DNA of 64,000 nt, from contig CAWACT010000003.1 in NCBI GenBank assembly GCA_963780745.1, positions 528,326 through 592,325 on the forward strand, read 5' to 3'. Shown here in pieces: positions 57,965-64,000 of the stretch. The translations under genes were made by a program, and so were the position numbers. This DNA comes from an uncultured Actinomycetes bacterium (GTDB lineage: Bacteria; Actinomycetota; Acidimicrobiia; Spongiisociales; DATADW01). The notes beneath the pieces were generated by a model. It was not told where the DNA came from, did no database searches, and saw nothing but the letters and a program-made list of their open reading frames with translations. The stretch's first letter is position 1. Every line of letters begins with the position of its first letter.

Positions 57965-60205
57965 ATGGCGGGAGCTTCACCGCAGCGACGCCGGGTGCGT
58001 CCCGACCTGTGGGCGGGGTGGAAGCCAAACGGGGTCGGTGAGGTCAAACCCAACCACTACGGCGAGATCTTCCGGACCGTGTGGGAGAACCGCGACTCGC
58101 TCCCCCGCGCCTGGGCGATCCTGACCAAGGGGGTGTGCGACGGTTGTGCCCTTGGCACCGCCGGTCTCCACGACTGGACGATCGACGGGGTCCACCTGTG
58201 CACCATAAGGCTCAACCTCCTCCGGCTCAACACGATGGGGGCACTCGACCCAGGTGTGCTCGGTGACGTGTCGGCGCTCCGCGCCAAGTCGGGCAAGGAA
58301 CTGCGCGCTCTGGGACGGCTGGCTCACCCCATGGTCCGCCGACGTGGTGAGGCCGGGTTCCGCCGAGCCACCTGGGGAGAGGCCCTCGATCTCGTCGCCG
58401 ACCGGATACGACGGTCCGACCCAGCAAGGTTCGCCCTCTACCTCACGTCTAGGGGTCTGACCAACGAGACCTACTACGTGGCGCAGAAGCTGGTCCGCTT
58501 CCTCGGTTCGCCCAACATCGACAACGCGGCGAGGGTCTGCCACGCCCCCTCCACCATGGCGCTGAAAGGGGCGATCGGGTTTGGGGCAACCACCGTCTCG
58601 TACACCGACCTGTTCGCCGCCGACCTCGTCGTCCTGTTCGGCAGTCACGTCGCCAACGCCCAACCAGTGATGATGAAATACCTGTTTCTGGCGCGCAAAC
58701 AGGGCCTGCGGGTGGTCGTGGTCAATCCCTTCCGCGAGCCGGCACTGGAGCGTTATTGGGTCCCTTCCAACCCGGAGAGCGCCATCTTCGGCACCCGCAT
58801 CACCGACGAGTTCTTCCCGATCCACATCGGAGGGGACATCGGGTTTATCCTCGGCGTCATCAAGGCCATGGTGGCGGAGGGGCCAACGTCCACCAGCACC
58901 GTCGACCCCGACTTCATCGCGGCGCACACCGAGGGCTGGCCCGAGCTTCGAGCCGAGGTGGAGGCCGCCGCGTGGAGTGACCTCGAGCTGGCCTCGGGTT
59001 CGACTCGGGCCGATATGGAGCGCTTCGCTCGGATGTACGGCGAGGCGCGCTCCGCAATCCTCATCTGGTCGATGGGCGTGACCCAGCACGTCTTCGGATC
59101 GGACAACGTGCGCGCCATAGCCAACCTCGCATTGGCGCGGGGCAACGTCGGGCGACCAGGTGCCGGGCTGATGCCGATCCGGGGCCACTCCGGTGTCCAG
59201 GGCGGCGCCGAGATGGGCGCCTACGCCACGTCGCTCCCCGGCGGTATCGCCCTCGACGGCGAGTCGGCGGCGCGGTTGTCAGCCGAATATGGCTTCACCG
59301 TCCCGGCCAGCCGTGGGCTGAGCGCCGCCGAGATGGTGGAGGCGGCCCACCGAGGCGAGCTAGACGTCCTCTATTCCTGCGGTGGGAACTTCCTCGAGGT
59401 CCTCCCCGATCCCCACCAGGTACGAGAGGCCTTGGAGCGGGTCCCGTTGCGGGTTTACCAGGATGTCGTCGTCACCACCCAGATGCTCATCGATCCTGGT
59501 GAGGATGTCGTGCTGCTTCCCGCCGCCACCCGCTACGAGCAGCGGGACGGCGGCACCGAGACGACAACCGAGCGACGCGTCGTGTTCGGCCCTCAGGTGG
59601 TGACGCCCGTGGGCGCGGCGCGCACCGAATGGGAGATATTCCTCGATCTTGCCCGACGGGTCGACCCCAACCGCTCCCACCTGATCGAGTTCGCCTCAGG
59701 TGAGGACATCCGCGCCGAGATCGCACGCGTGGTGCCCATTTACCAAGGCGTCGAGTCCTTCTCGGAACTGGGCGACAACCTGCAATGGGGTGGGGAGCGG
59801 CTTTGCGAGGGATGGCGATTCCCCACGCCCGACGGCAAGGCGCACTTCGCCGTCGTCAGGCCACCGCCTCCACCGGAACCGGGGCGATTCCGGCTTTCCA
59901 CGAGGCGGGGTAAGCAGTTCAACACCATGGTGTTCTCCGATCGGGACCCGCTGACCGGAATGGGTCGTCATGACGTGCTGATGGCCGCAACAGATCTGGA
60001 GGCTCTGGGGTTGGCCGACGGCGCCTCGGTGACCGTTCGCTCCGCACACGGCGAGATGGCTGCGGTCGCCAGGAGCGGGCGCATCAGGCCGGGCAACCTC
60101 CAGGCCTTCTGGCCAGAGGCCAACGTTCTGATCACTCCCGGGGTGCGCGATCCTGAGGCTCTGATCCCCGAGTACAACGCGGTGGTCGAGGTGATCCCGG
60201 GCTGA
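57965..60205 (+). CDS. molybdopterin oxidoreductase, FdhF/YdeP family
   Basis: N-terminal Cys cluster CDGCALG..LC and a long MopB-type body. Start at ATG 57965; the upstream part of the ORF-track entry overlaps pyrG antisense. Confidence 0.75.
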   Translation: MAGASPQRRRVRPDLWAGWKPNGVGEVKPNHYGEIFRTVWENRDSLPRAWAILTKGVCDGCALGTAGLHDWTIDGVHLCTIRLNLLRLNTMGALDPGVLGDVSALRAKSGKELRALGRLAHPMVRRRGEAGFRRATWGEALDLVADRIRRSDPARFALYLTSRGLTNETYYVAQKLVRFLGSPNIDNAARVCHAPSTMALKGAIGFGATTVSYTDLFAADLVVLFGSHVANAQPVMMKYLFLARKQGLRVVVVNPFREPALERYWVPSNPESAIFGTRITDEFFPIHIGGDIGFILGVIKAMVAEGPTSTSTVDPDFIAAHTEGWPELRAEVEAAAWSDLELASGSTRADMERFARMYGEARSAILIWSMGVTQHVFGSDNVRAIANLALARGNVGRPGAGLMPIRGHSGVQGGAEMGAYATSLPGGIALDGESAARLSAEYGFTVPASRGLSAAEMVEAAHRGELDVLYSCGGNFLEVLPDPHQVREALERVPLRVYQDVVVTTQMLIDPGEDVVLLPAATRYEQRDGGTETTTERRVVFGPQVVTPVGAARTEWEIFLDLARRVDPNRSHLIEFASGEDIRAEIARVVPIYQGVESFSELGDNLQWGGERLCEGWRFPTPDGKAHFAVVRPPPPPEPGRFRLSTRRGKQFNTMVFSDRDPLTGMGRHDVLMAATDLEALGLADGASVTVRSAHGEMAAVARSGRIRPGNLQAFWPEANVLITPGVRDPEALIPEYNAVVEVIPG

Positions 60206-60212
60206 ACGCAGC

Positions 60213-61103
60213 TCAGGCGATCGGCTCGGCCGAGAAGACAGGCGGGCGGGAAGGGTGCGCGGCCCGGCAAGTGAGCACCGACTCTCCGGCGGCGCTCTCG
60301 TAGGCGATCCTGACCGTGATGTTCTCCCCACCAGGGCCATGCGCCGATACCTCGGCTGCACCCGGCGCCAAGCGCTTCAAGCCGACCACCTCCACGTCAT
60401 CGACTCCCGTCCATCCAAAGCGGATCCGGATGAAATGATCGGCGGCCTGGGCGATGCGGTGCATCGAGCTCCGACCCCTGTAGCGGTCCAGCTCCAAGCG
60501 ACCGAGCTCGAACGAGCCGATGACACGGGGGGCTTCGTCCGGCTCGACCCGCCCGAAGTAGGCCCCGTGAGGCAGGACGAGAATGTTGCCGGCGAAACGA
60601 TCGCCTCCTATGTGCGATGTCTCCCACACCCTCTCCGGGAGCAGCGCGGACGCTGCCCGGTACAGCGGCCTCCCCCGATCGGCGCAACAGATGTCGTGTC
60701 GTCCGTGGGTGCACACCAGGTATACGGGTCGGGTTTCCCGGGGGCCCAAGGCTTCTCCGGCGGCGAGCGCGGCAAGATCGACATCGAGCACGTCCTCGGG
60801 TCGACTGAGCGTCTGGCGGACCAACACAGGTTCCCGACCGGCACTGTGGGCGAGGAGAATCATCCGCTCGCCCGGGGAATGGCGGCCGCGCCGGATCAAC
60901 AAAGCCCGCACTCCGTGGGCCGCGGCACGCCGCTCGAGCTCGGCGGCCACAGCGATGGGAAACCGGCTCTCCAGCATTGCCTCGGGACCCCATGGCCCGG
61001 GCTGCTCGATGGCGAGCCAAGCGACGACCGTTGACGCCGTGGCGAACAGTGTCTCTTCCCGGTGCCGCGCCTCGGTCGAGCAGCGGAACCGGTCGGCGGT
61101 CAA
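60213..61103 (-). CDS. sucrase/ferredoxin-like (thioredoxin-like [2Fe-2S]) family protein
   Basis: VCTHGRHDICCADRGRP and SHIGGDRFAGNILVLPHG match the Suc_Fer-like pattern by eye. The ATG at 61103 overlaps the upstream stop (ATGA). Confidence 0.65.
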   Translation of the reverse strand: MTADRFRCSTEARHREETLFATASTVVAWLAIEQPGPWGPEAMLESRFPIAVAAELERRAAAHGVRALLIRRGRHSPGERMILLAHSAGREPVLVRQTLSRPEDVLDVDLAALAAGEALGPRETRPVYLVCTHGRHDICCADRGRPLYRAASALLPERVWETSHIGGDRFAGNILVLPHGAYFGRVEPDEAPRVIGSFELGRLELDRYRGRSSMHRIAQAADHFIRIRFGWTGVDDVEVVGLKRLAPGAAEVSAHGPGGENITVRIAYESAAGESVLTCRAAHPSRPPVFSAEPIA

Positions 61104-62251
61104 CCGACCACCTCGAGCAAGCCCTCCTTGATCAGCCTCCGCACCAGGACCATTTGGCTCTCTGCATCCAGGCCCAGCTCGCCGACCCTGATCCGGCCGC
61201 GCTCGAGCAACTGGGCCATCACCGGCGCCACGAATGCCGGCATTCTCAGCTCTCGGTCTCCGAGCAACACCGCCAGGTCATCGCCCTCTGGCTGCAAGAG
61301 GCAGAGCGCACCGGTCCTCACCTCCACCCACGATTGGTCGGACAACTGGTCCAGATCGAGCATGCGGCGCATCTGGCCGGAGAGCAATGGTTGGCGGGTG
61401 GTGAAGAACCTCCGCTGCAGCCGACCACCGACCGCATCCCGGTCGACCTTGGTCATCAGCAGCTCGCCGATTCGATCGAGACGCTGGTCGACCGTCGCAC
61501 TCAATGCCTGCTGGTCGTCGGCGAACCGGAGTGGCAAGGGCTCGTCCAACTCTCCATCCGTCTCGAGCAGCCAAAGCGCCGCCTCGAGCACCTCCTTCGT
61601 CCCGATCGACAGGATCCCGATGGTGAGATGCACCGAAGCCGAAGTCTGGGTGGCGGCGGCGTGCGGGAAGTTGCTCGGGATGTACAGACTGTCGCCCGGT
61701 CCGAGGTCGATTTCGATCAGCGCAGCCCGGGTCGGCGGCAGGTCATTCCTATCGTGGACAACCCAGCGCTTGCTCCCGTGGCTCTGCAGCACGAAGACGT
61801 CGTGGTCGTCCTGGTGGAGATCGAAGCCCTGCGACCCGGGTGGAGTCACATAGGCGTTGACTTGCACCGGGTGGCCGAGGGCCACTTCCAAGCTGCGGGC
61901 GAAGCCGGCCACCGGGGACCAGTAGCGGTGCATGCCCTGGAGCACGATGGTCGCCCCGGCGTCGAAGTGGGCGAACACCGCGGCAGCGTCGGCGACCCCG
62001 GTCGCCGCTTGGGACCCGGTTCTCGTCGACTTCGTATAACCGCTCGGGGAGAGGATCTTCCCCTGTTGAACCAGCCTGAAGGCGGGCAGCCTGAGGCCGG
62101 CAGAGGAGATCAGGTGGTCGACATCGTCGAGCGAGAGCAGGTCGCTGAAGCCATCGGGAGAACGATGCAGCAGCGGACGCTTTCCCCACACCTCGGTGGC
62201 GAAGGAGGCGGGGTCGCCGACGCAGCGCTCCAGGCCGGTATCGGACGTCAT
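61100..62251 (-). CDS. JmjC/cupin-4 family Fe(II)/2-oxoglutarate oxygenase (YcfD/RoxA-like)
   Basis: NAYVTPPGSQGFDLHQDDHDVFVLQSHGSKRW (HxD) and GDSLYIPSNFPHAA (distal His). Size (383 aa) and the C-terminal helical domain fit ribosomal-oxygenase-type proteins. Confidence 0.7.
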   Translation of the reverse strand: MTSDTGLERCVGDPASFATEVWGKRPLLHRSPDGFSDLLSLDDVDHLISSAGLRLPAFRLVQQGKILSPSGYTKSTRTGSQAATGVADAAAVFAHFDAGATIVLQGMHRYWSPVAGFARSLEVALGHPVQVNAYVTPPGSQGFDLHQDDHDVFVLQSHGSKRWVVHDRNDLPPTRAALIEIDLGPGDSLYIPSNFPHAAATQTSASVHLTIGILSIGTKEVLEAALWLLETDGELDEPLPLRFADDQQALSATVDQRLDRIGELLMTKVDRDAVGGRLQRRFFTTRQPLLSGQMRRMLDLDQLSDQSWVEVRTGALCLLQPEGDDLAVLLGDRELRMPAFVAPVMAQLLERGRIRVGELGLDAESQMVLVRRLIKEGLLEVVG

Positions 62252-62283
62252 CGAGCCCTCATCGGCCTCGCGATGTAGTCCTC

Positions 62284-62563
62284 CTAGCGCTCGCCGTCGG
62301 TCCCGTCCACGCCGTCGCTGTCGGTCCCGTCAACACCGTCGGCATCGGTTCCGTCCACGCCGTCGGCGTCCGTGCCATCAACACCGTCGACACCGTTGGC
62401 GTCGGTCCCGTCCACGCCGTCAACACCGTCGGCATCGGTTCCGTCCACGCCGTCGGTATCGGTGCCATCCACCGCCGTCGGCATCGTCCTTCTGGGACGA
62501 GGGAACCCCGCCTATCACGGTCCGGATGTCCTCATCGCGCAGCGACGGATGGTCATTGCTCAT
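62284..62563 (-). CDS. small acidic repeat protein (about 92 aa): 28-aa N-terminal region followed by seven DGVDGTDx octapeptide repeats; one frameshift near 62472-62476
   Basis: GAGGAGGG lies 5 nt upstream of the ATG at 62563 (MSNDHPSLRDEDIRTVIGGVPSSQKDDADG). Removing one G joins it to ORF 62284..62484 (VDGTDTDGVDGTDADGVDG...DGER-stop). The nucleotide-level periodicity is 24 nt. Confidence 0.6.
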
Positions 62564-62595
62564 TTCGCCCTCCTCGTCAGGTCTCGTCGATGAGG

Positions 62596-64000
62596 CTAAC
62601 GCTGCGCCACGAGATCCGGTCGCTGGTCCAACTCGACCAGCCGGCAAAGCGCATCCACCGCACGATCGACATCGTCGATCGTGTTGTAGAGAGCGAAGCT
62701 GAGCCGGCAGGTGGCCTGAGGGGCGAGGCCCAACCACCGGTGGGCCAGCGAGGCACAGTGACACCCGGCGCGGGCTTCGACACCCTGGCGGTCGAGTCCG
62801 TCGGCCAGGTCGTACGGGCTCCACCCTTCCACGTTGAAGGCGACGAGCGGGGATCGGTCCTCGCCAGCCGGTGGGCCATAGAGCGTGATCCCGCCGACCT
62901 CGGACAAGCGCTCCATTGCGTGGGAAGTGAGCATCTTGCGTGTGGTCCCGAACCGCACTCATCACCTCGCTCACGACAGAGCGAGGCACGGACCTCTCGG
63001 TGCGGAAATACGGCTCGGCACCCGGCCCGCTCACCATATCGACCAGAAGTCGGAGCGCCTGGCCCGACACGATCACCTCGAGGACGGCAGGGGTGCCCGC
63101 CGCCGATCGCCAAGGGAGGTCGGCGTACTCGATGCGGTCATCCCAGACCCCACCGTCGGCGATCATGTCGCCGCCATAGAGGAACGGGCGCGTGCCGGCG
63201 ATGAGGTCCTCCTTCCCATAGAGGACACCGACTCCGAACGGCGCCAGGATCTTGTGGAAGGAGAAGGACAACCAGTCCACGTCGAGAGCCGCCACGTCCA
63301 CCGGATTGCTCGGCACCAATTGAGCCCCATCCACCAGTAGCAGCGACCGGAGGCGGCCATCGGGCTGCTCGTATCCGCTGCCATCAGCGATCGCCCGGAC
63401 GTCGGCGAGTGGCGGTTTGCTGCCGAGGAAGTTCGATGCGCCGGTGCAGCAAATCAGCTTGGTTCTGTTGTCGACGAGGTGCGCCATGTGGTCGAGGTCG
63501 AGCTCTCCGGTTGCGCGGTCGAAGTCGACCAGCCGATACTCGACGTGCCGCCCCAGGGGTTGGAGGATCTCTTTCGTCATCCCATACCAAGGGACGTAGT
63601 TGGAGTTGTGCTCCATCCTGGTGGTGACCACGTTGTCCCCGTCGCGGAACTCGGTCAGCATCGAGTACATCACCGCGTTGTGCGCCTCGGTGGTGTTGCG
63701 GTAGATGGCGATGTTGCGCCTGCTCGGCGCGTTGATCCATTGGGCGATGGTGTCGTATGCGCTCTCGAAGAGGTCGGTCATCAACCGCGCCGCGGTTGAC
63801 CTGCCGCGGTGGACGCTCTCATAGCCGGGCACGAGCTCGGCCAGCAGTTCGACGAGCTCGCGCGGGTGACTGGGTGGTGGCGGCGTTGTTGGTCACAATC
63901 CGGCCCCGCCCGACAAAGTCGAAGTGGTCCCTGATCCGCTCGACGTCGAACCGTGGTTTGCTCTCGGCGGCCGCGGTCTCGCCCGGATCAGTGCCGACAT
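62596..64000 (-). CDS. class V aminotransferase-fold PLP enzyme, cysteine desulfurase (SufS/CsdA)-like; 5' end beyond the window; frameshifts near 62950 and 63860
   Basis: PLP-lysine region LSFSFHKILAPFGVGVLYG and active-site Cys region ARAGCHCA. The N-terminal KPRFDVERIRDHFDF reading continues past base 64000. Confidence 0.75.

Follow-up and report, generated by a model that had tools for sequence, protein, structure and literature searches.

We analysed a 64,000-nucleotide (nt) stretch of DNA from an uncultured Actinomycetes bacterium (GenBank assembly GCA_963780745.1, contig CAWACT010000003.1, positions 528,326 to 592,325), hereafter termed the window. Its final part, positions 60213 to 64000, carries a gene for a small acidic repeat protein next to the gene for a JmjC oxygenase. 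Open reading frame (ORF) analysis placed four co-oriented and tightly packed genes here, as stated in the original prediction for this locus, and assigned all of them to the minus strand. In the direction of transcription, these are a SufS-like gene (62596–64000), the small acidic repeat-protein gene (62284–62563), the gene for a JmjC Fe(II)/2-oxoglutarate (2OG) oxygenase of the ribosomal oxygenase (ROX) type (61100–62251, 383 amino acids (aa)) and a gene of the Suc_Fer-like, or thioredoxin-like-ferredoxin, family (60213–61103, 296 aa, TTG start).

The gaps on either side of the small gene are exactly 32 nt each (62252–62283 and 62564–62595), and good Shine–Dalgarno sites precede both following genes, both as predicted. 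The site of the small ORF, GAGGAGGG (62568–62575, minus strand), lies 4 nt upstream of the ATG at 62563, and GAGGG sits ahead of the JmjC ATG. The overlap between the oxygenase gene and the ferredoxin-like gene had been read as ATGA; it is TTGA, these 4 nt being shared by the JmjC stop codon and the TTG start of the Suc_Fer-like gene. Through this overlap, the Suc_Fer-like gene is predicted to be translationally coupled to the JmjC gene.

A three-gene cassette conserved in Actinomycetota

To place the locus among its relatives, we scanned one genome per species with an alignment of the JmjC protein and retained the best 80 of at least 581 matches (36–83% identity). The comparison set comprised 82 related loci, numbered with the prefix L, and the window. 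Carriers span the Acidimicrobiia, Nitriliruptoria and Actinomycetes, and include Halosaccharopolyspora lacisalsi, Nocardioides sp. SR21, Aeromicrobium sp. 9AM, Actinokineospora spheciospongiae, Mycobacterium gordonae and M. asiaticum.

The original prediction had asked whether a DG-rich small ORF always precedes this JmjC clade. A small Asp-rich repeat ORF lies immediately 5′ of the JmjC gene in all 79 loci with upstream sequence. An automated search found 71 of these, and inspection added the window, L001, L020, L029, L061, L071, L010 and L077, the last two with partial peptides at contig edges. The four loci without a scored small ORF have less than 125 nt of upstream sequence. On the other side, tblastn located a Suc_Fer-like gene immediately 3′ of the JmjC gene in every locus but L041 and the truncated L034, which makes 81 of 82 loci with downstream sequence. 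The Suc_Fer-like gene of L087 (7528–8388) was not called by the gene finder of the source, where a convergent MMPL call overlaps it; tblastn detects an intact copy.

When ORFs of at least 100 aa from the 83 loci were clustered all against all, JmjC and Suc_Fer were the only families shared. The next most frequent ORF family occurred in 13 of the 83 loci, all from a single clade. No conserved protease, transporter or receptor gene was found near the cassette in the 83 loci or in three further contexts. An FtsH-like protease lies downstream in nine loci; we rejected it as a cassette member, as these loci belong to one closely related clade and the arrangement looks like shared synteny. A profile built from 20 peptides retrieved 70 small proteins of 57–140 aa, all hypothetical or unnamed and none with a Pfam domain. 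In a reciprocal test, three of these matches (P0270, P0281 and P0307) were followed to their contigs, where each directly preceded JmjC_2 and Suc_Fer genes (3/3), in otherwise unrelated contexts.

All three genes are genuine, run in the same direction and are linked almost without exception. Their distribution identifies the feature as a conserved cassette of Actinomycetota with three genes rather than four. The proposed co-occurrence of four families is therefore strongly positive for the peptide, JmjC and Suc_Fer families, while the SufS-like family falls outside the conserved set.

The oxygenase has the residues and architecture of ROX enzymes

The JmjC protein matches Pfam JmjC_2 (PF08007) with 76.2 bits against a cut-off of 22 (E = 2.2e-21), in agreement with the family first assigned to it. 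Searched against the Protein Data Bank (PDB), a profile of the clade matched human NO66 (4e-23), MINA53 (3e-20) and Escherichia coli YcfD (8e-10). The AlphaFold2 model has a predicted local distance difference test (pLDDT) score of 92.7 and shows a catalytic JmjC barrel together with a helical domain and a beta-rich/helical domain at the C-terminus. Foldseek returned NO66 as the top match of this model (template modelling score 0.72, E = 1e-25, 23% identity) over all three domains, followed by MINA53 and YcfD, the latter at 17–19% identity. The three-domain ROX architecture of barrel, helical and C-terminal domains is thus present, with full-length alignment to NO66, MINA53 and YcfD. The C-terminal domain, in which beta strands are followed by helices in the model, gave no Pfam match even at E = 10. 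Domains resembling recognition elements of RiPPs (peptides made by the ribosome and modified after translation) have been described as fusions to PF08007 proteins in RiPP-like contexts (PMC12710340).

The predicted HxD...H triad is borne out by alignment with NO66, in which H146, D148 and H197 correspond to the iron ligands and K161 to the 2OG-binding Lys. All four residues are invariant across 48 sequences. The triad/Lys motif was found in 75 of 84 locus ORFs, and the remaining 9 include known frameshifted or truncated JmjC genes. The oxygenase keeps every residue needed for binding Fe(II) and 2OG and is predicted to be catalytically competent. Given the profile and fold matches to NO66, MINA53 and YcfD and the invariant iron and 2OG residues, sequence and model together identify the protein as a bona fide ROX-type Fe(II)/2OG oxygenase, in a distinct clade.

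The original prediction had called for a comparison with ribosomal oxygenases. The structural family is indeed shared, yet identity to YcfD and NO66 is 17–23% and the small-ORF neighbour is conserved; this is not the tight grouping with neighbour-less ribosomal-protein hydroxylases that the prediction had set against itself. The gene context points to the co-encoded peptide instead of a ribosomal protein as the substrate.

The Suc_Fer-like protein carries an altered ligand motif

The product of the third gene matches Pfam Suc_Fer-like (PF06999) with 73.7 bits, above the gathering cut-off of 34.9 (E = 2.8e-20), and the ferredoxin-like family assignment made earlier holds. Its motif reads C131-x8-C140, with an additional C139, and H164-x3-D168. 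Among 37 homologues, C8, C131, C139, C140, H133, H136, H164 and D168 are invariant, and C279 is kept in at least 90%. The motif CX8C...HX3H forms the [2Fe-2S] site of Aim32/Apd1 (PMC8482512). In the cassette protein, CX8C and the first His are present and the second His is replaced by Asp; the position following H-x3 holds Asp in 75 of the 76 loci and Glu in the other one. A [2Fe-2S] cluster in this protein is plausible, with binding only putative because of the Asp in place of the second His.

The C-terminal domain of ~90 aa has no Pfam match at E = 10. The structural model is of moderate confidence (pLDDT 76), with low confidence around C8, D168 and C279. Searches against the PDB gave no meaningful sequence match, and Foldseek of the model returned none at E < 0.09.

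A polyanionic peptide with a fixed leader and changing repeats

The small gene encodes a leader (MSNDHPSLRDEDIRTV...) followed by DGVDGTDx repeats, with 92 aa in total after removal of one base. The octapeptide repeat that had been noticed in the window is real: Tandem Repeats Finder reported a period of 24 with 8.1 copies at 62297–62486. Across the family, the peptides are 53–114 aa long (median 79) and have a median net charge of −21. They consist of 27% Asp, 17% Thr, 14% Gly, 9% Ser and 9% Ala, contain no Cys or Tyr, and are presumably disordered.

The N-terminal motif L-x-D-[E/D]-D-I-x-T is near-invariant across the family. In 67 non-redundant leaders, its positions are occupied by L in 57, D in 65, E/D in 62, D in 59, I in 58 and T in 64. 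The corresponding codons D-E-D-I-R-T of the window lie at 62524–62541 on the minus strand, counted from the ATG at 62563. The repeats, by contrast, vary in number and consist of D, G, T, S, A and V residues; the unit has been swapped wholesale between lineages while the N-terminal motif stays fixed. The unit is DGVDGTDA in the clade of the window, DGVDSTDS in most Acidimicrobiia, DADGTD or DGDxTD in many Actinomycetes, and DGGA or GEGTADGGSNPEGHDGGADGTA in Mycobacterium and its relatives. Only Asp is shared by every type of repeat, mostly with a spacing of 2–3 residues. Copy number shifts fast among close relatives (60 to at least 114 aa), as seen for L007 compared with L017 and for L005 compared with L008 and L047. 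Further examples are L071 (Actinokineospora, ~150 aa) and L081 (DGGA, ~20 times).

The evidence that the small ORF is coding is strong. Of the 29 nucleotide differences between the window's repeat units, 23 affect codon position 3; 23 codon changes are synonymous compared with 3 non-synonymous. Most related loci have GAGGAGG-type Shine–Dalgarno sites ahead of the start codon of the peptide. Together with the conservation of the leader motif and the recurrence of the same frame in ~80 independent loci, these features argue for a genuine gene.

Six intact peptides taken from several lineages matched no family when scanned against Pfam and NCBIfam. Exact look-up of ten peptides in a collection of 15 billion proteins found one, and none of the peptides from cultured Actinomycetes (L035, L048, L065, L073, L075 and L082) was found there by this search. 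Public genome records may lack annotations for these peptide ORFs or may annotate them from different start codons. In being short, carrying a conserved leader and lying beside a gene for a modifying enzyme, the peptide gene has the hallmarks of a RiPP precursor gene. No obvious cleavage motif was seen between the repeat units.

Frameshifts in the window

From the ATG at 62563 to the end of the stop codon at 62284, the small ORF of the window measures 280 nt, which is not divisible by 3. Leader and repeats are out of frame, the leader frame runs into a stop, and the ORF listing gives only a 66-aa frame at 62284–62484. A single extra G in GACGGCGGTGGAT (62467–62479, minus strand), where GACGGCGTGGAT is expected, breaks the ORF; deleting it restores the 92-aa protein. 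The peptide of roughly 92 aa described in the original prediction is thus recovered once the extra G is removed and is intact in relatives, but it is broken in the window itself, where the frameshifts had been overlooked. The SufS-like gene contains at least two more: a surplus C in TCACCCGCGCGAG (63857–63869) and a second frameshift near 62932–62947.

All three indels fall inside 1.7 kb, and two are 1-nt insertions in short runs of G or C. The JmjC, Suc_Fer, formate-dehydrogenase (FDH)-like, pyrG, NUDIX and ald neighbours are intact, and the adjacent 8 kb look undamaged. The order of genes is shared with the closest relatives. Intact peptide orthologues occur in L002 and L003 (82 aa each) and in L020 (99 aa), where the SufS-like gene is also unbroken (470 aa). 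Related loci carry frameshifts elsewhere: the peptide gene of L001 is shifted at another position than in the window, and the recN and molybdopterin genes of this locus are split; L020 has split JmjC and Suc_Fer genes; and the peptide of L029 is shifted. These relatives are contigs of hundreds of kilobases, in metagenome-assembled genomes (MAGs); those with frameshifts come from long-read projects.

The frameshifts in the window are most simply read as small homopolymer-type assembly errors, given the two 1-nt insertions in short runs, the different positions at which long-read MAG relatives are shifted in the same genes, and the intact peptide and SufS-like genes of L020. Programmed frameshifting in the small ORF was considered and rejected, as the reading frame is intact in L002, L003 and L020, and the shift of L001 lies at another site.

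Neighbouring genes

The SufS-like gene (62596–64000, minus strand) encodes a class-V aminotransferase or cysteine-desulfurase paralogue; at its 5′ end the gene runs out of the window. It matches Aminotran_5 (PF00266, E = 1.7e-79), which agrees with the desulfurase-like family first proposed. Against the SufS family TIGR01979 it scores 286.5 bits, below the cut-off of 475; the approximate frame repair at ~62932–62947 and the N-terminus cut off by the window could depress this score. Such a gene adjoins the cassette in the window, L001–L003 and L020, and in none of the other 78 loci. Judged by this distribution, it is a lineage-specific neighbour outside the conserved cassette, and not the system member that the original prediction had taken it for.

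In L001 (4593–7641), L002 (4656–7693), L003 and L020, the start of the SufS-like gene is overlapped by a gene for an AMP-binding (adenylate-forming) enzyme of 533 aa. The AMP-binding gene accompanies the cassette only in these closest relatives, and in the window it would fall past position 64000. The SufS-like paralogues of these loci (470–488 aa) score below the SufS family cut-off. The AMP-binding and desulfurase-like genes may form a unit of their own.

Downstream of the cassette, a convergent molybdopterin oxidoreductase (FDH-like) gene ends at 60205, 7 nt from the Suc_Fer-like stop at 60213, and the intrinsic-terminator scan found no terminator-like hairpin between them. The order FDH-like, pyrG, NUDIX, ald and xerD-like recurs in L001 and L002. 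Scanning 59900–64000 for sigma-70 promoters and intrinsic terminators, with methods poorly suited to Actinomycetota, gave nothing. No boxes for IdeR, Zur, Fur or NrdR were detected when the upstream 260 nt of 70 peptide genes were scanned. In L083 (4593–5914) and L084 (351–1672), genes for a TetR regulator and a hemerythrin, an O2- and iron-binding protein, directly precede the peptide gene and share its strand; found in one lineage only, they may hint at responsiveness to O2 or iron.

The loci L004, L006, L009, L012, L019 and L026 come from MAGs labelled 'uncultured Acidobacteriota bacterium', and the peptides of L009 and L005 are identical. The label is probably wrong, because these cassettes are almost identical to those of Acidimicrobiia MAGs.

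Relation to known systems

The cassette enzyme shares with the ROX proteins NO66 and MINA53 of humans and YcfD/RoxA of E. coli the JmjC_2 family, the three-domain architecture, the aligned HxD...H triad and the 2OG Lys. All of these are protein C3-hydroxylases. They act on His or Arg of ribosomal proteins, with neither a dedicated co-encoded small substrate nor a ferredoxin-like partner. The cassette enzyme differs in having an acidic small ORF and a Suc_Fer-like gene as obligatory neighbours, and in its low identity to them (17–23%).

JmjC enzymes that hydroxylate a co-encoded peptide are known from RiPP biosynthesis: BipG is an ornithine hydroxylase of the biphenomycin pathway (PMC12707348), and CzlI is a Phe hydroxylase of the curacozole pathway (PMC11575548). 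In both, the recognition region of the peptide lies outside the modified residues (PMC12707348, PMC11575548), and we propose the same for the cassette. The BipG and CzlI clusters contain many further enzymes, proteases and transporters, and their products are short secreted antibiotics. The cassette, by contrast, has three genes, a long polyanionic repeat peptide and no linked genes for processing or export.

The chemistry that we propose, Asp C3 hydroxylation by an Fe/2OG oxygenase, is that of the Asp/Asn beta-hydroxylases FIH (a JmjC enzyme), AspH, CinX of cinnamycin and the Asp hydroxylases of non-ribosomal peptide siderophores. Hydroxy-Asp serves as a ligand of Ca and Fe. The known likeness of these enzymes to the cassette oxygenase is limited to the cupin/JmjC fold, and Asp hydroxylation in the cassette is a proposal of ours. 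CinX is cited among such hydroxylases in PMC11575548.

The Suc_Fer-like protein has the Pfam family and the CX8C...HX3 ligand spacing in common with the Apd1/Aim32 ferredoxins (PMC8482512). It departs from them in the exchange of the second His for Asp in 75 of 76 loci, the adjacent Cys (CC), the conserved C8 and C279, and the ~90-aa C-terminal domain of no family. It is also bacterial and coupled to a JmjC gene.

A full-text literature search found no description of the trio, of a bacterial Suc_Fer-like gene beside a JmjC gene or of the peptide family; it returned JmjC enzymes in other RiPP pathways. For the trio, this agrees with the earlier remark that no described system of this composition was known. 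The system is known in kind, as a peptide or protein hydroxylase with a co-encoded substrate; the combination of peptide, JmjC and Suc_Fer is undescribed.

Proposed function of the cassette

We propose that the ROX-type JmjC enzyme hydroxylates the co-encoded acidic peptide, with the Suc_Fer-like protein as its redox partner, and we consider the chance that this is right to be about even. The peptide is probably the enzyme's own substrate, because the trio recurs across Actinomycetota with the peptide gene immediately before the oxygenase gene. The oxygenase would recognise the conserved N-terminal motif and then hydroxylate the peptide, the likeliest chemistry being hydroxylation at C3 (beta) of the repeat Asp residues. 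C3 hydroxylation is typical of JmjC hydroxylases. As Asp is also the only residue universal to the repeats, its C3 is our best guess for the modified site. The presumed [2Fe-2S] protein would either keep the catalytic iron reduced or act on metal bound to the product. The modified polyanion would stay inside the cell, as a small protein that binds cations (Fe or Ca) or responds to O2 or Fe; we favour an intracellular product over a secreted RiPP because no protease or exporter is linked to the cassette.

A more elaborate version, which we regard as rather unlikely, would have the cassette make a class of ribosomally encoded small poly-beta-hydroxy-Asp proteins that has so far escaped annotation, acting as an intracellular, siderophore-like Fe(III)/Ca(II)-binding polymer. 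A new Cys2-His-Asp thioredoxin-like [2Fe-2S] protein would then control the loading or release of metal by redox chemistry.

Several points weigh against the proposed hydroxylation. We infer the substrate, the modified residue and the cofactor content alike. The multiple beta-hydroxy-Asp, the metal chelation and the redox support from the ferredoxin-like protein that the original prediction put forward are likewise hypothetical. The JmjC proteins are themselves acidic (median pI 5.7, net charge ~−10), which is unexpected for a binder of a peptide with a charge of −21, as like charges would meet unless the leader or bridging metal ions mediate. The N-terminal motif is the best-conserved part of the peptide and could be a single modification site instead of a docking site. 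2OG oxygenases normally need no ferredoxin partner such as the one assumed here for the third gene. In the putative cluster protein, Asp takes the place of the second His of the Apd1/Aim32 site, the model reaches a pLDDT of 76 and no PDB fold matches it significantly. Finally, the genes may have decayed locally in the organism of the window; such pseudogenisation is possible, since three frameshifts lie within 1.7 kb while neighbouring genes are intact.

Alternative explanations

The view that the small ORF is no gene but an open frame arising by chance in GC-rich repetitive DNA is effectively refuted. It would fit the frameshift in the window and the 9 of 10 peptides without an exact match in the protein collection, but the frame, leader motif, Shine–Dalgarno site and position recur in ~80 loci despite very different DNA repeats, synonymous changes dominate between repeat units, and intact orthologues exist. 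A system of four genes, with the SufS-like desulfurase supplying sulfur to the [2Fe-2S] protein, is very unlikely. The SufS-like gene does lie on the strand of the peptide gene and end 32 nt ahead of it in the window, L001–L003 and L020, and it follows an overlapping AMP-binding gene, so that the genes are probably co-transcribed; yet it is missing from the neighbourhood of the other 78 loci and of L083–L088, and its 286 bits stand against a SufS family cut-off of 475. In another reading, the peptide is a metal helper, that is, an Fe(II)/Ca(II) buffer or a metallochaperone that supplies the JmjC iron site or the cluster of the Suc_Fer-like protein, or the JmjC enzyme hydroxylates the Suc_Fer-like protein. 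The extreme Asp content with its spacing of 2–3 residues and the TTGA overlap that would couple JmjC and Suc_Fer translation agree with this, and the low-confidence segments around C8, D168 and C279 of the Suc_Fer-like model would fit an unfilled cofactor site. We nevertheless find it improbable, as the conserved leader motif resembles an enzyme recognition element and we know of no precedent for a dedicated chaperone of a mononuclear Fe(II) oxygenase.

The two remaining alternatives concern the substrate of the oxygenase and the fate of the peptide. The JmjC protein could hydroxylate a ribosomal or housekeeping protein, like YcfD, NO66 and MINA53, with the peptide in an accessory role, for example as a competitive regulator or inhibitor, as a chaperone or by mimicking an acidic partner. 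Ribosomal oxygenases account for all of its nearest solved structures and sequences, the enzyme too is acidic, and the number and type of repeats vary freely, which fits a tail with bulk properties better than a precise substrate. Set against this are the mere 17–23% identity to YcfD and NO66 and the near-absolute linkage and conserved leader motif, which argue for direct recognition of the peptide; to our knowledge, YcfD-type enzymes require no co-encoded small ORF. We rate this alternative as quite unlikely. In a true RiPP pathway, a multi-core precursor would be hydroxylated and cut by an unlinked protease, and the resulting short hydroxy-Asp peptides would be exported as a metallophore. 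Beta-hydroxy-Asp is a classical Fe(III) ligand in siderophores, and the leader-plus-repeats architecture of the peptide would fit such a precursor. JmjC enzymes are also known to tailor RiPPs (PMC12707348, PMC11575548). Yet protease, transporter and receptor genes are not conserved near the cassette in the 83 loci and three further contexts, IdeR, Zur and Fur-like boxes were not found upstream in 70 loci, and the repeat units have no obvious cleavage motif between them. RiPP clusters are expected to include a linked leader protease or exporter, and the recurrent neighbours here include no cassette-specific protease or transporter. We therefore hold this pathway to be decidedly improbable, and the multi-core RiPP or secreted-chelator version of the original prediction is weakened.

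Implications

Very few substrates are known for bacterial JmjC/ROX hydroxylases, and the searchable literature contains next to no studies of bacterial Suc_Fer-like proteins. The cassette provides a candidate trio of enzyme, substrate and partner in more than 80 species-level genomes. The small-ORF family is largely unnamed and may often go unannotated in genomes. As some carriers are culturable (Aeromicrobium, Nocardioides, Halosaccharopolyspora, Actinokineospora, Mycobacterium gordonae and M. asiaticum), the questions that it raises are directly testable: what a bacterial ROX enzyme acts on, what a thioredoxin-like ferredoxin does beside a 2OG oxygenase, and whether a hydroxy-Asp polyanion can be made ribosomally. 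There is a real chance that the product is new, and it may prove to be a ribosomally encoded poly-hydroxy-Asp polyanion.

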